Shown piece by piece: positions 6,879 to 63,922 of a DNA stretch of 64,000 bases (its first letter is position 1; each line of letters opens with the position of its first letter). The notes beneath the pieces were generated by a model, which searched no databases, was not told the DNA's origin, and saw only the letters and a list, made by a program, of their open reading frames with translations. The stretch lies in the sequence record MH243438.1. One strand, written 5' to 3'. Origin of the DNA: Escherichia phage vB_EcoM_NBG1. Made by a program: the position numbers and the translations under genes.

Positions 6879-7403
6879 TCATTTTAGCAAAATAAAATCA
6901 ACTTGTTCTGCCAATGAACGTCTAAACATTAATTGACAACTTCCGAGGATGAAATCAGGTGCTTCATAGACCGCGATGTAGTATCCTTTAGCTTTCAAGA
7001 GTTCAACATCCACCTGGTCATCAAACCATGCATAAACCGCGTCAACACTTTCAAATCCAAAATAGAACTCTTGAGCCCAATCTTCGTTCAATTCAAATGT
7101 GTGCTCAATTCTATAGTATCTTAAGATATTTTGTTCAAGGAGTTTGTCTTCATTTACTGTAGGACGATTAGGGACATTATAGTTGTCACCGTGATGGTAG
7201 AAGTTACCTGAGATTATCCCATGTTTATCAAGGAACTCCCATGTTTCTTCAGAGTTATCGGTGCCCGACCAACCGTATGGCGAACGAGGTTCTTTATTCC
7301 AAGAGGTTTCCCAAATTCTGACGGCTTTACCGTCTTCGATAGCAATTCCTGGTAATGATTCACGTTGAGTACAAAAACTACGTTCTACGCGGTAAACTAA
7401 CAT
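6879..7403 (-). CDS. hypothetical protein
   Basis: 174-aa ORF; SD AGGAGA lies inside a 13-bp inverted repeat with the upstream promoter spacer. Confidence 0.6.
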   Translation of the reverse strand: MLVYRVERSFCTQRESLPGIAIEDGKAVRIWETSWNKEPRSPYGWSGTDNSEETWEFLDKHGIISGNFYHHGDNYNVPNRPTVNEDKLLEQNILRYYRIEHTFELNEDWAQEFYFGFESVDAVYAWFDDQVDVELLKAKGYYIAVYEAPDFILGSCQLMFRRSLAEQVDFILLK

Positions 7404-7407
7404 ATTA

Positions 7408-7458
7408 TTCTCCTCTGGTTGATACGGTTATAATATCAAAACCAGAGGAGAAGTAAAC
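7408..7458 (-). promoter_or_regulatory. early promoter (GTTTAC-N17-TATTAT) whose spacer is a perfect 13-bp inverted repeat of the downstream SD region
   Basis: arms 7408-7420 (contains SD AGGAGA) and 7440-7452 (promoter spacer); -10 at 7430-7435; -35 at 7453-7458. Confidence 0.55.
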
Positions 7459-8417: not shown

Positions 8418-8446
8418 ACTATACTCCATCCATCCTTGGATGTACA
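8418..8446 (-). promoter_or_regulatory. early sigma70-like promoter, PeSL-type variant (TTGTACA-N17-TATAGT)
   Basis: minus strand TTGTACATCCAAGGATGGATGGAGTATAGT, about 25 nt upstream of the ATG at 8389. Confidence 0.55.
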
Positions 8447-12888: not shown

Positions 12889-13470
12889 CTAAAAATTCAA
12901 CATTTTCAAATGAATGATTTTGTATAACCGAGATAAAGGGTCATATTCTAAGTCTTCAATTTCCACAATCTCAAATCTAGAGATACCTGAGACCATGTAC
13001 TCTTGTTCAGATTCAATCATATCTAGGACATCGATACGAGCTTCTTCCATAACATGCTTAGGGTTCTTTCCGGCGAGTACAATGTTAACCATGTTTTGGT
13101 AGTAATCAAAAATGAACGGAGCATTCCTGAGACTAAGAATAGTGTACGTCTGATATTCCCAACTCCCAGAGAATTGACGAGCTGTACTGAAATCAGTTGT
13201 GAACGATGTTACTCGTCCAGGAGACCAATGGCATCCAACAGAAAGAAGTGAAAGACGTTCTACTTCTTCTGGAGTTACACCACGGTAGAGTTCTACTGGT
13301 ACTGTAGAAGTCATATGCTTACGAACAAGATGGTCTAATTCATAGTGGAAATCCGGGTCTTCCTTAGAATCGGTGCAAGCCCAGAGAATGTTTTGTTCTT
13401 GGCGGGTGAATTTGCTATCAATCAGATTTGTTAGGTATTCACGTTCTTGAAGTTCAGATTGACATGTCAT
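12889..13470 (-). CDS. modB: ADP-ribosyltransferase ModB-like
   Basis: 193 aa; ART signature (VELYRG, RVTSFTTD, ESEQEY); paralog of previous ORF. Confidence 0.7.
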   Translation of the reverse strand: MTCQSELQEREYLTNLIDSKFTRQEQNILWACTDSKEDPDFHYELDHLVRKHMTSTVPVELYRGVTPEEVERLSLLSVGCHWSPGRVTSFTTDFSTARQFSGSWEYQTYTILSLRNAPFIFDYYQNMVNIVLAGKNPKHVMEEARIDVLDMIESEQEYMVSGISRFEIVEIEDLEYDPLSRLYKIIHLKMLNF

Positions 13471-13497
13471 GATAGACCTCCATTTAAAGATAAGCCT

Positions 13498-13526
13498 ATC
13501 ATAACACGAGAGGAGGGAATGTAAAC
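13498..13526 (-). promoter_or_regulatory. early promoter upstream of modB-like gene (GTTTAC-N17-TATGAT)
   Basis: spacer contains CCTCC complementary to the downstream GGAGG SD. Confidence 0.5.
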
Positions 13527-19649: not shown

Positions 19650-19838
19650 TTATCGAAAATCTGCTTCGAAAACTTTCTCGTCATTAATAAATGCTTTAAC
19701 TAATGCATTGTTCACTTCAGCAAGTTGTACCGTAACCCACTCGATTTCTTCGCGATCACCTGATAACATGATATCTTTAGTGAACATCTCACCGCTTTTA
19801 AACCAACCGATAAAAGTAACTTTAGTTAATTTGCTCAT
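19650..19838 (-). CDS. dmd: Dmd-like antitoxin (inhibitor of RnlA/LsoA-type toxins)
   Basis: 62 aa from MSKLTKVTFIGWFKSGEMFTKDI..; resembles remembered T4 Dmd; ATGA overlap with upstream stop. Confidence 0.55.
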   Translation of the reverse strand: MSKLTKVTFIGWFKSGEMFTKDIMLSGDREEIEWVTVQLAEVNNALVKAFINDEKVFEADFR

Positions 19839-20152
19839 ATTTCCTCGCAAAATGCCCATTCAGCGTGATAAACTGTAGCGCCTTTAGTATCATTCATTTG
19901 AACTACATCTACAGGAGAAATTACTCGATAGAGACGTGGTTCACCTCCATAAGAGCGTGCTGCTCGTCCTGCATAAATCTTTGCTAAACCGATATCTTCA
20001 GTAAAGAATACACGATCCAAGTTTTTCTTACGTCCAGTTTCAGACAGAACTCCTGTTTCTTCAGGAGGACAAAGCATGTTTTCGATGTTAGCTGAACTAC
20101 TTGAACCGTGATAAAAAATCTTAAATTCTGCTTTACAATCGATGGTTTTCAT
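19835..20152 (-). CDS. hypothetical protein
   Basis: 105-aa ORF; SD GGAG inside a perfect 12-bp inverted repeat with the promoter spacer. Confidence 0.6.
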   Translation of the reverse strand: MKTIDCKAEFKIFYHGSSSSANIENMLCPPEETGVLSETGRKKNLDRVFFTEDIGLAKIYAGRAARSYGGEPRLYRVISPVDVVQMNDTKGATVYHAEWAFCEEI

Positions 20153-20158
20153 TTTGTT

Positions 20159-20207
20159 CTCCAGTAGTTGATAGGTCTATAATAACACAACTACTGGAGA
20201 AGTAAAC
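20159..20207 (-). promoter_or_regulatory. early promoter (GTTTAC-N17-TATTAT) with perfect 12-bp inverted repeat pairing spacer and SD
   Basis: arms 20159-20170 (SD GGAG of gene 19835-20152) and 20189-20200 (spacer); -10 at 20179-20184; -35 at 20202-20207. Confidence 0.55.
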
Positions 20208-20582: not shown

Positions 20583-20645
20583 AATGTTTTCCTCTTGGTT
20601 GGTGTAAGTACATCATATCATGCCTAGAGGAAGATGTAAACCCCG

Positions 20646-53601: not shown

Positions 53602-53659
53602 GTTTTACCTCCAGTAGTTGATAGGTCTATAATAACATAACCATAGACCTTGTAAACAA

Positions 53660-53947
53660 CTAAAAGAAACTTTTTTCGGTATTTTTTCCACTGAACCAAA
53701 CAGACTTCGGGATTTTTTGTAATTTTTCAGATTTAAGTTTCTCTTCCTGTTCTTTCTTATATACACCCTTGTCGTACTGGAGCATCTCTATGGCATTCTT
53801 TTGCAAACGATCTAAGGTAATTAAGGCTTTAGTTTTTCCTTTCAAGGAAGAGTCCTGGCGAACCTCCTCACTATATTGCATCGTAGAACTAACCATACGA
53901 TGAGCATACAGTTCGACTGCGGCTTTAATTTTTTGCATAAAATCCAT
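53660..53947 (-). CDS. hypothetical protein
   Basis: 95-aa ORF. Confidence 0.55.
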   Translation of the reverse strand: MDFMQKIKAAVELYAHRMVSSTMQYSEEVRQDSSLKGKTKALITLDRLQKNAIEMLQYDKGVYKKEQEEKLKSEKLQKIPKSVWFSGKNTEKSFF

Positions 53948-57663: not shown

Positions 57664-57827
57664 TTTACCATACTCGTTTCAATAAGATTCACTATGCCGT
57701 TTACCATGTTATAAGTAAACATCGGATAATTGTATTGTACTACAACATAAGAGATAAGCAAAAGTTTCATTTTGTTCTCCGTTCGTTTTGGTAGGACTAC
57801 TATAACATAATCCTACCAAGATGTAAA

Positions 57828-58034
57828 CTACCGATTGTGTTTTAAATGTTGATAAAGTTCTTCAACTTGTTTAGGGTCCAAAACAATTAGGTCATTTTCT
57901 TGACGAAGATAAATCCATCCCTTATCCCCAGGTCCATTTTTACAAAACATCACCACCATATCATCATCTTCAGCGCTTTCAGGTAAAAGTTCAAGTACAC
58001 CGTCTTCAGATTTTCCAGTATAATCGTAAAGCAT
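57828..58034 (-). CDS. hypothetical protein
   Basis: 68 aa from ATG 58034 (MLYDYTGKSEDG..), SD GAGGA. Confidence 0.5.
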   Translation of the reverse strand: MLYDYTGKSEDGVLELLPESAEDDDMVVMFCKNGPGDKGWIYLRQENDLIVLDPKQVEELYQHLKHNR

Positions 58035-58041
58035 AATATCC

Positions 58042-58221
58042 TCACATAATCTCGTTAACATACATTTGCAATTCGGAGTGGGCGATGGTCATCTTTTTCA
58101 TAGCTCTGTTAATGTCGATGTCTCCATCTTCGCAACCATGAGCATTTTCCCAATCAGATACCGCATTAGCGTACTCTTCAATCAAAAACATTAACTTTGA
58201 AATCTTTTCTTTACGCGTCAT
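58042..58221 (-). CDS. hypothetical protein
   Basis: 59 aa from ATG 58221 (MTRKEKISKL..); SD GAGGAG inside the promoter-spacer inverted repeat. Confidence 0.45.
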   Translation of the reverse strand: MTRKEKISKLMFLIEEYANAVSDWENAHGCEDGDIDINRAMKKMTIAHSELQMYVNEIM

Positions 58222-58225
58222 AATG

Positions 58226-58277
58226 TTCTCCTCTAGTAAGTAAGGACTACTATAACACAACCTGAGGAGAAGTAAAC
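58226..58277 (-). promoter_or_regulatory. early promoter (GTTTAC-N17-TATAGT) with spacer/SD inverted repeat
   Basis: spacer arm 58261-58271 complementary to SD arm 58226-58236 (8 of 11 contiguous). Confidence 0.5.
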
Positions 58278-58322
58278 TGATAGATGCCAAAAAGCCCCAA
58301 CCATAAGGAAGGGGCTAGTAAA

Positions 58323-61414: not shown

Positions 61415-61873
61415 CTAGATTTTAATCACTGCTTTAGAAGCTTTTCCTGGTAGTCGTTTACTGTTAATAATAGCCATTCTGCATTGAAGAGTCTTCATTT
61501 TGAATGCCGGATTTTCGCGACAAACTGTAAGTCCTAACCAAAGATTTCCGTCAGTTATTTCTAAACGGCCTGGACGATACTCGACACCTTCGACAAAATC
61601 TTCATCAACATCTGGACGTGCCGGCATTGATAAAAATTCTGCAACTTCTTTAACGTGATTTTTTACTTTATGAAATAATTCAAAAACGTAATTCTCATCT
61701 ATTTCTCTCTGGATGGCACGATCTAAGAGATGTTGAGAATACTTGATATGAAAGCCTGGTAGTCCAAGAGACTTTGCAGCATCTTTTATACCGGCATTTA
61801 TTTTGCGGAACTCCGTTTCAAAGATTCGACGGAGTTTATTACGGCGGATAAAAACTTCCGAATTGATAGTCAT
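61415..61873 (-). CDS. regB: RegB endoribonuclease
   Basis: 152 aa from MTINSEVFIRRNKLRR, near-identical to remembered T4 RegB; ORF-track start at 61897 is a TTG. Confidence 0.85.
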   Translation of the reverse strand: MTINSEVFIRRNKLRRIFETEFRKINAGIKDAAKSLGLPGFHIKYSQHLLDRAIQREIDENYVFELFHKVKNHVKEVAEFLSMPARPDVDEDFVEGVEYRPGRLEITDGNLWLGLTVCRENPAFKMKTLQCRMAIINSKRLPGKASKAVIKI

Positions 61874-61880
61874 TTTGATT

Positions 61881-61930
61881 TCTCCTCTAGTTGACAAGTC
61901 TATAGTAACACAACTAGAGGAGAAGTAAAC
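61881..61930 (-). promoter_or_regulatory. regB early promoter (GTTTAC-N17-TACTAT) with perfect 13-bp spacer/SD inverted repeat
   Basis: arms 61881-61893 (regB SD GAGGAG) and 61911-61923 (spacer); -10 at 61902-61907; -35 at 61925-61930. Confidence 0.6.
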
Positions 61931-63386: not shown

Positions 63387-63922
63387 TGCATTCCAATCAC
63401 AAAAAATTGAGGACGAGCATTACCGCCGATGCAATATTTGCTTTTGCAACAGTGTTGGACTGTTTTAATATGTACATTGTAAATCTTATCCATATCAGGA
63501 GCTTTAATAGGCTCGTCAATTATATACAGAATACGAGAAAGCGTTAATCCACGGAATTTAGAACCTTCATTGCCAATAAAACTACGAACAGAATCAGTAA
63601 ATAAACGGAATCGAATATCGTCGCTAGAATAACGAGAAAATTCTTTTTCAATGTTGCCAGCAGAAATTTTAGCATAAGCTGAAGTATTAGAAAGAACAAT
63701 AACTGTTCCGCCATCATACAGCCAATTAGCAGCAAAGTTAGTCACAGCAATTGATTTACCTGATTGTCGGCCGCCGTCTAAACGAAGTGTACAGTACTGC
63801 TTGAGTACGTCTTCAAATGGTGGGACGTAACCGTTCTTACAAATTTCTTCTACTCTAGCATCAGAATGGTGTGTAAAAGCATTCATCAGGGATAGATAAG
63901 GTCCAGTTAAAAATGTTCTCAT
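63383..63922 (-). CDS. hypothetical protein with P-loop-like motif
   Basis: 179 aa from ATG 63922 (MRTFLTG..); GGRQSGKS Walker-A-like segment. Confidence 0.5.
   Translation of the reverse strand: MRTFLTGPYLSLMNAFTHHSDARVEEICKNGYVPPFEDVLKQYCTLRLDGGRQSGKSIAVTNFAANWLYDGGTVIVLSNTSAYAKISAGNIEKEFSRYSSDDIRFRLFTDSVRSFIGNEGSKFRGLTLSRILYIIDEPIKAPDMDKIYNVHIKTVQHCCKSKYCIGGNARPQFFVIGMQ

Follow-up and report, generated by a model that had tools for sequence, protein, structure and literature searches.

Within the 64,000-nucleotide stretch of Escherichia phage vB_EcoM_NBG1 analysed here (sequence record MH243438.1; hereafter the window), four early promoters have a -35/-10 spacer that is complementary to the Shine-Dalgarno (SD) leader immediately downstream. 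The window begins at rIIA, belongs to Mosigvirus (T4-like, RB69 group) and is collinear with the RB69-group genomes that it matched. A 7-kb piece is 96-98% identical to RB69-group Escherichia and Shigella phages, the top matches being vB_EcoM_G53, mar005P1, ST0, APCEc01 and JK36, the last of which is classified as Mosigvirus mar005p1. Essentially all genes of the window lie on the minus strand, and the promoter cassettes must therefore be read on that strand. The whole analysis was carried out in silico, and the energies, helices and masking effects given below are predictions.

A preliminary description of the window had proposed these four sites; all are present where it placed them, and the minus strand is the functional one. 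Each cassette is 55-60 nucleotides (nt) long and consists of a -35 GTTTAC, a 17-nt spacer, a -10 TAYTAT (TATAGT at site 3), about 9 nt, an SD segment, a further 4-6 nt and the ATG. The four copies are 75-85% identical, and each occupies an entire intergenic gap of 55-59 nt. The spacer starts with TTCTCC, and its reverse complement reappears as the leader that carries the SD. All four sites keep the outer half-sites TTCTCC/GGAGAA, and at the strong sites GGAG is always present and followed by A-rich sequence. Transcription is expected to start about 7 nt past the -10, and the 3' arm, which carries the SD, begins 1-3 nt after that start. The 5' arm lies wholly within the spacer and is therefore upstream of any start site used by that promoter. 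The promoters are of the early type GTTTAC-N17-TAYTAT, and by geometry the 5' arm falls in the spacer of the gene-proximal promoter, which fits the T-even early consensus.

Site 1 spans 7401..7458, with the -35 GTTTAC at 7458-7453, the 17-nt spacer, the -10 TATTAT at 7435-7430 and the ATG at 7403-7401. Its 5' arm, the anti-SD sequence TTCTCCTCTGGTT, lies inside the promoter spacer at 7440..7452, while the 3' arm AACCAGAGGAGAA at 7408..7420 holds the SD, with GGAG at 7413-7410; the arms pair perfectly over 13 base pairs (bp) around a 19-nt loop. Site 2 (20150..20207; -35 at 20207-20202, -10 TATTAT at 20184-20179, ATG at 20152-20150) has a perfect 14-bp helix between TTCTCCAGTAGTTG at 20188..20201 and CAACTACTGGAGAA at 20157..20170, the latter holding the SD GGAG. 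Site 4, upstream of regB, extends over 61871..61930 (-35 at 61930-61925, -10 TACTAT at 61907-61902, ATG at 61873-61871), and again the arms are perfect over 14 bp, with TTCTCCTCTAGTTG at 61911..61924 and CAACTAGAGGAGAA, which holds the regB SD, at 61880..61893. The G of its -35 doubles as the last base of the TAG stop of the upstream open reading frame (ORF). Site 3 is a degenerate member (58219..58277; -35 at 58277-58272, -10 TATAGT at 58254-58249, ATG at 58221-58219), with 8 contiguous bp between TTCTCCTC (58271-58264) and GAGGAGAA (58233-58226) and an extended pairing of 10 of 12 positions that includes one G.U pair and one mismatch. The arms had earlier been described as 12-13 bp long, perfect at three sites and matched at 8 of 11 positions at the fourth. 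The perfect pairing at three sites holds, at lengths of 13, 14 and 14 bp, and the fourth site is indeed weaker, with the 8 contiguous bp, or 10 of 12 positions counting the G.U pair, replacing the earlier figure.

Perfect inverted repeats of at least 12 bp with a loop of 10-30 nt occur in the 64 kb only at sites 1, 2 and 4, against a mean of 0.135 and a maximum of 2 in 200 first-order Markov simulations, and the motif GTTTACTTCTCCTC occurs four times in the window where 0.46 occurrences are expected. An Rfam scan of positions 1-64000 returned no family at gathering score. The minimum free energy (MFE) of the RNA fold is -24.8 kcal/mol at site 1 (z-score -5.6), -21.6 kcal/mol at site 2 (-4.5) and -22.8 kcal/mol at site 4 (-3.7). 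To compare transcripts, we calculated how much free energy it takes to unfold the ribosome site (-14 to +3) in a modelled promoter-proximal RNA, starting 7 nt after the -10, and in a modelled read-through RNA from upstream. The cost rose from 4.9 to 20.4 kcal/mol at site 1, from 3.0 to 17.9 kcal/mol at site 2, from 2.9 to 16.4 kcal/mol at site 4 and from 5.1 to 13.1 kcal/mol at site 3. On upstream transcripts the SD is accordingly predicted to lie in a stable helix at sites 1, 2 and 4, and weakly so at site 3. The two halves of the original proposal, that read-through RNA folds and sequesters the SD and that transcripts from the embedded promoter, being without the 5' arm, leave the SD free, are thus borne out at the computational level, the first by stable predicted hairpins with opening costs of 16-20 kcal/mol and the second by the spacer geometry and modelled costs of 3-5 kcal/mol.

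As a control, the upstream part of each promoter was joined to the leader of every other promoter. A difference of at least 10 kcal/mol between the two RNAs was found for 4 of 19 native but only 12 of 342 chimeric pairs in the window (p=0.0013), and for 4 of 21 native but 2 of 420 chimeric pairs in T4 (p=5e-5), for which NC_000866 was used and early promoters were counted in the first 78 kb. A permutation test on helix length gave p=0.001 for the window and p=0.0006 for T4. In these models, masking is specific to native promoter/leader pairs, and promoter swaps abolish the effect.

The regB locus allowed the helix to be followed across lineages. From IMG/VR and metagenomes, 36 unique promoter-to-ATG cassettes of regB were collected, most of which fold with the SD paired to the spacer, using at least 11 different helix sequences. 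The Mosigvirus helix is TTCTCCTCTAGTTG/CAACTAGAGGAGAA, and that of T4-like loci, UUUUCCUCUUGACUG/CAGUUAAGAGGAGAA, contains two G.U pairs; other lineages carry TTTCTCCTCTTTATG, TCTCCTGTAAGT, ATCTCCTTTTAGT, ATCTCCTGTAG, ATCCTCATTTG, ATCCTCTCTG, CCTCCTTT and CTCCTCTTG. Pairs were counted among 18 lineage representatives, with the -35 and the helix end or GGAG as anchor points for the arms and a constant TATAAT filler in place of the variable loop. Whole-cassette alignment with plain MAFFT could not be used for this purpose, as it misaligned the arms. Paired cells made up 73.3% of the total, compared with 56.4% after shuffling; cells changed on both sides numbered 63, compared with 27.6; and the covariation score was 0.499, compared with 0.229. 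On all three measures the observed value exceeded that of every one of 500 shuffles, and controls in which the partner was slid by 1-3 columns scored 0.13-0.22 for covariation. These shuffle and slid controls matter because the alignment was fitted to the structure, the 3' register having been set by the helix in 14 of the 18 rows. Judged by these compensatory sequence changes, the regB spacer-SD hairpin is under selection across many T-even lineages. For the gene at site 1, IMG/VR held only three loci, which are near-identical, and its covariation rests on the comparison with T4 motB.2.

Some regB loci depart from this design. In L027-type lineages the spacer does not pair, and the -10 region instead pairs with the SD through the AUG (-16.6 kcal/mol, z-score -3.8). 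Distant loci of the Aeromonas-phage type have a strong terminator just upstream and no masking. A related fifth element of the window, at a modB-like gene that encodes an ADP-ribosyltransferase (13463..13526, minus strand; -35 at 13526-13521), also uses its extended -10 region, GUGUUAUGAUAGGCUU at 13508-13493, as the 5' arm. Its 3' arm (13478-13463) covers the AUG at 13470-13468 and reaches the SD GGAGG (13482-13478) only at its last base on the 3' side, the remaining four SD bases showing partial pairing in the fold. The helix reaches -24.2 kcal/mol (z-score -4.9) and raises the opening cost from 3.0 to 17.9 kcal/mol, and T4 modB (promoter at 13186) has an equivalent helix with compensatory differences. 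That the L027-type regB and modB promoters recruit the -10 region for this arm suggests that selection is aimed at the ribosome site.

The same device is found in T4 itself. There, regB has a 15-bp spacer-SD helix (MFE -22.4 kcal/mol), nrdC.8 one of 13 bp (-19.4 kcal/mol), denV one of 10 bp (-18.0 kcal/mol) and motB.2 an extended one (-23.7 kcal/mol), with z-scores of -3.8 to -5.6, and the -35 is abutted by the stop codons of vs.3, nrdC.9, ipII and dexA, respectively. The T4 regB promoter has been described as a typical early promoter, and GenBank AF158101 annotates no promoter features for the regB region. A look through T4 omics papers for transcript-resolved measurements yielded none. The cassette of T4 denV (65353-65413) is 93% identical to the L029 regB cassette, which the T4 regB cassette matches at only 67%; within a single genome, the cassettes of the 105-aa gene found at site 2 (L084) and of regB (L058) are 88% identical. 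Cassettes that are closer between different genes than between orthologues suggest cassette exchange or gene conversion.

Other features were seen at T-even promoters. An initially transcribed motif, TATCAACTAC(T/A)G, recurs just past the -10 in many T-even early promoters (for example at 53657 and 20207 of the window and at 53943, 65413 and 73572 of T4), and it is retained in loci L090 and L094, where a terminator replaces the -35 and the 5' arm. Upstream of T4 gene 1, at 75365-75445 (L019:25365-25445, minus strand), lies a sequence resembling a MotA-dependent middle promoter with a AATGCTTCA box, whose spacer/-10 region pairs with the AUG region (-21.4 kcal/mol, z-score -4.7). Judging from this promoter, the masking logic may extend to middle promoters.

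The cassettes sit in tightly packed gene neighborhoods. Site 1 lies between a MotB-like ORF (7882-7463) upstream and the motB.2 homologue (7403-6879) downstream, whose 174-aa product is 33% identical to T4 MotB.2. Site 2 follows an inserted 124-aa ORF (20582-20208) and precedes a 105-aa ORF (20152-19835), the protein of which (phrog_2110) has no Pfam match and retains 55-100% identity among highly diverse T4-like phages, some with genomes of about 230 kb. This 105-aa ORF (19835-20152, minus strand) overlaps the start of a Dmd-like ORF. Site 3 is preceded by the rI antiholin gene and then a terminator-like hairpin, and is followed by a 59-aa DUF7438 ORF. At site 4, a 99-aa ORF lies upstream and the regB ORF (61873-61415) downstream, encoding the GGAG-specific endoribonuclease (PF10715, E 4e-69). 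All of these ORFs are on the minus strand.

At sites 1, 2 and 4 a gap of just 0-4 nt, free of terminators, separates the stop codon of the upstream ORF from the -35. Promoter-like sites are present further upstream on the same strand, at 8446 and 9004 for site 1, at 20640 for site 2 (430 nt away) and at 63547 for site 4, again with no terminator between them and the cassettes. Read-through RNA is thus expected at these three sites, in agreement with the established picture in which T4 early transcripts run into downstream genes. At site 3, an intrinsic-terminator-like hairpin (AGCCCC..GGGGCU, then UUUUU; 58294..58317, minus strand) follows rI and ends 13 nt before the -35. Little read-through is expected there, which agrees with the decayed site 3 helix. 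Indeed, folding showed that the two weak versions in the window, site 3 and a 7-bp version at 20641, are those preceded by terminator-like hairpins.

The relation holds more widely. Among the unique regB and 105-aa-gene cassettes, masking of at least 8 kcal/mol was found in 0 of 15 with a detected upstream terminator and in 28 of 53 without one (Fisher 9e-5; Mann-Whitney 2.5e-4), p-values that are optimistic because the sequences are phylogenetically related. The detector still misses the terminators of L090, L094 and L097, all three of which have low masking. In several genera, where gene 41 and a terminator directly precede the 105-aa gene, the helix is reduced to a 5-6 bp remnant, ATCTCC/GGAGA(T); in Mosigvirus the 124-aa ORF has been inserted without a terminator, and the helix is 14 bp. 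This ORF (phrog_10668) is missing between gene 41 and the 105-aa gene in L084, L085, L091, L092 and L097, and from these comparisons the ORF together with its cassette looks like an insertion of the promoter early stem-loop (PeSL) type. The confinement of strong masking to cassettes without a detected terminator is what would be expected if the helix deals with read-through RNA.

We consider it probable, with real reservations, that these elements are self-masking early-promoter/ribosome-site cassettes, in which translation depends on where the mRNA started. A polymerase arriving from an upstream early or middle promoter would transcribe both arms. Once the 3' arm emerged, a helix of 13-14 bp (about -20 kcal/mol) would form and bury the SD, and the gene would go untranslated from such delayed-early or middle read-through RNA. 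RNA started at the embedded promoter would lack the 5' arm; its leader would be short, rich in A and open, its GGAG SD strong, and translation could begin immediately. T-even early promoters are shut down after only minutes, which would restrict these proteins to a short immediate-early burst of synthesis. The targets of RegB are single-stranded GGAG motifs in early SDs; structure protects, and middle and late RNAs are largely resistant. As RegB requires single-stranded GGAG, the helix would hide this motif on read-through RNA and shield it from cleavage, whereas promoter-proximal RNA would stay cleavable. Untranslated read-through RNA may also be prone to Rho polarity, which would resemble attenuation.

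Several observations weigh against this proposal, beyond the fitted register and the optimistic p-values already given. Site 3, with an MFE of -14.0 kcal/mol and a z-score of 0.04, folds no better than shuffled sequence. The regB lineages L031/33/72 and L047-50 show little masking (a difference of 2-4 kcal/mol) even without a terminator. Durand et al. report in vivo cleavage at some GGAG sites despite their structure, perhaps while the RNA is nascent. Hairpins that spare the SD also occur at early promoters. In the window, a 9-bp helix TTGGTAGGA/TCCTACCAA at 57788-57828 (minus strand) crosses the -10 of the promoter at 57828, which precedes a 36-aa ORF, and ends 6 nt before the SD, leaving it free; comparable hairpins lie at T4 ipII, dmd, mobD.2a and ipI, and promoter-spanning hairpins may therefore have an additional or different role. 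Finally, the helix is not proven to act in a strand-specific manner at the RNA rather than the DNA level: under unbiased scoring, G.U outnumber A.C mismatches within helices by only 5 to 2. A ratio of 10:1 came from a biased scoring scheme and was discarded.

The SD-sparing hairpins are also what would be seen if the cassettes were PeSLs in the published sense, that is, terminators or attenuators of upstream transcription that double as homology patches for shuffling, with the SD overlap incidental to a short leader. The cassettes are repeated at 75-85% identity and shared by non-orthologous loci (93% between denV and L029 regB), a gene plus cassette has been inserted as a module between gene 41 and the 105-aa gene in Mosigvirus, and Arbiol et al. 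(PMC2839356) reported that a PeSL stem-loop lowers downstream lacZ expression and that PeSLs recombine into mini-circles. We nonetheless regard this account as unlikely. The helices at sites 1, 2 and 4 are followed by A-rich rather than U-rich sequence (AAUAAUAUG, ACAAAAUG and AUCAAAAUG), and stems lacking a U-tract are not intrinsic terminators. Recombination requires homology, not self-complementarity, and leaves the compensatory changes unexplained. The helix always passes through GGAG, and where alternative arms are used they still target the SD or AUG. Strong masking is not seen together with a detected terminator, suggesting that terminator and helix are alternative solutions to read-through.

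The protection of GGAG could instead be the whole purpose, the helix hiding the motif from RegB or stopping exonucleases and thereby stabilizing delayed-early and middle polycistronic RNA. This is less likely still, even though structure does protect GGAG from RegB, middle and late RNAs are largely resistant, and the strong sites all present GGAG followed by A-rich sequence, the target context of RegB/S1. Burial of the AUG in the modB and L027-type solutions would be left unexplained, and some structured sites are cut in vivo regardless; masking the SD necessarily blocks initiation as well, so that the two effects are inseparable by sequence alone.

We find it improbable that the repeat works as DNA, either as an operator for a dimeric phage protein or as a cruciform that aids the abrupt shut-off of early promoters. 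In its favor, the -10 sits at the centre of the repeat, the outer half-sites TTCTCC/GGAGAA are conserved, the shut-off mechanism is described in the literature as incompletely understood, and the 5 to 2 asymmetry is too weak to decide against such a role. However, the inner helix sequence varies freely while pairing is kept, which argues against sequence-specific recognition by a protein, and conservation of GGAGAA is explained by the SD. The G.U pairs in the T4 regB and nrdC.8 helices would be mismatches in DNA and on the opposite strand, and the anticorrelation with terminators has no rationale at the DNA level.

SD-masking hairpins that are opened by upstream ribosomes are a classical device of translational coupling, and the upstream ORFs do end right before the cassettes; the SD might then stay closed until a ribosome finishing the upstream ORF melts the hairpin. 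A terminating ribosome, to judge from the position of the ribosomal helicase, unwinds only about 5 nt past the stop codon. Here 5-10 nt separate the stop codon from the first paired base downstream, which would leave at most 1-2 of the 13-14 bp within its reach, and in no regB lineage compared does the upstream ORF enter the 5' arm, which makes coupling very improbable. That a pyrimidine-rich promoter spacer and a purine-rich SD are complementary by accident of their consensus would account for the 5-6 bp TCTCC/GGAGA remnants that persist even with terminators and for the 5-6 bp helices that swapped promoter/leader pairs average, but it is hardly credible for native pairs that exceed swapped ones, for helices that reach 5-10 bp beyond the SD core with compensatory variation, and for three perfect 13-14 bp helices where 0.135 are expected.

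If self-masking is accepted for the individual cassettes, a wider proposition becomes conceivable, which we put forward only tentatively and think rather doubtful as a whole: that about one in five T-even early promoters (4 of 19 in the window and 4 of 21 in the first 78 kb of T4) form a self-masking regulatory class, which would impose an obligatory immediate-early pulse on RegB, ModB, DenV and MotB.2, create read-through junctions immune to RegB and, via Rho, account for PeSL attenuator activity and part of early shut-off. In T4, the textbook system for timed gene expression, promoter shut-off and RegB account for only part of the sharp stop in synthesis of many early proteins. Self-masking would add to the picture of T4 timing a cis-acting layer that restricts translation of a gene to RNA from its own early promoter, and would also refine the autoregulation of RegB and give a mechanistic reading of some PeSL attenuators. 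Since regB, denV, modB and motB.2 carry the device in T4, it is directly testable with existing T4 genetics. For annotators and phage engineers the rule would be that moving or deleting an upstream terminator or gene alters which transcripts express the next gene. The compact design, a promoter spacer that doubles as an anti-SD, could be reused in synthetic biology to insulate translation units.

Among known systems, the closest in logic are T4 e, soc, 49 and I-TevI (and mobE of Aeh1), where promoter-internal hairpins mask the ribosome site (Uzan and Miller 2010, PMC3014915). In these, as here, the 5' strand of the helix masking the SD or AUG lies at or upstream of the gene-proximal promoter; long transcripts are translationally silent and those from the proximal promoter are translated, a behavior that in the present cassettes is predicted. 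The comparison with e, 49 and soc made in the preliminary description was therefore apt, with the qualification that the cases in the 2010 review are all late-promoter cases and that regB, denV, motB.2, nrdC.8 and modB are not among them. Whereas the known cases use late promoters (TATAAATA), the cassettes have early promoters of the sigma-70 type and use the -35/-10 spacer itself as the 5' arm (at modB, the -10 region). No TATAAATA motif, the hallmark of gp55-dependent late promoters, occurs in the promoters of the cassettes, which are thus a variant rather than a member of the late-promoter class. The timing is also opposite, since the known hairpins delay translation to late infection and the cassettes are predicted to confine it to the immediate-early period.

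In form, the cassettes resemble the PeSLs described in RB49/phi1, PST/T4 and nt-1/KVP40 (Arbiol 2010, PMC2839356; Comeau 2014, PMC4122927), which are repeated intergenic modules of about 50-60 bp comprising an early promoter, stem-loop, SD and start codon. Four copies of such a module are present here, they match the PeSL promoter consensus TTTACW-N17-TAYWAT, and, like PeSLs, they are common to unrelated genes and flank gene insertions; the 124-aa ORF and the shared denV/regB cassette are instances of association with gene insertion or replacement, drawn from these loci. The likeness to PeSLs claimed at the outset consequently stands for cassette form and shuffling behavior rather than for the function of the stem. 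The stems in the PeSL publications, compact hairpins of G/C-rich or AGNA/TCNT type, are placed before, inside or directly behind the promoter (those of PST/T4 are drawn just upstream) and are read as terminators or attenuators, whereas here no U-tract follows the stem, which extends across the -10 and has the SD as its 3' arm. Neither PeSL paper (PMC2839356, PMC4122927) mentions pairing or sequestration of the SD or translational effects.

Finally, the production of RegB must, according to the review, be kept within tight limits, its early promoter being off at 2-3 min and its SD being self-cleaved. The hairpin involves the same GGAG SD of regB but would add a third, cis-acting layer, by which read-through regB RNA is neither translated nor cleavable. 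This layer is not described at regB in the accessible sources. Valerie and colleagues are said to have pointed out, in 1986, potential stem-loops before ipIII, ipII, denV and an ORF near regB. Older papers may already note the stems themselves; masking of the SD by early promoters would extend to early genes a trick documented so far for T4 late genes.

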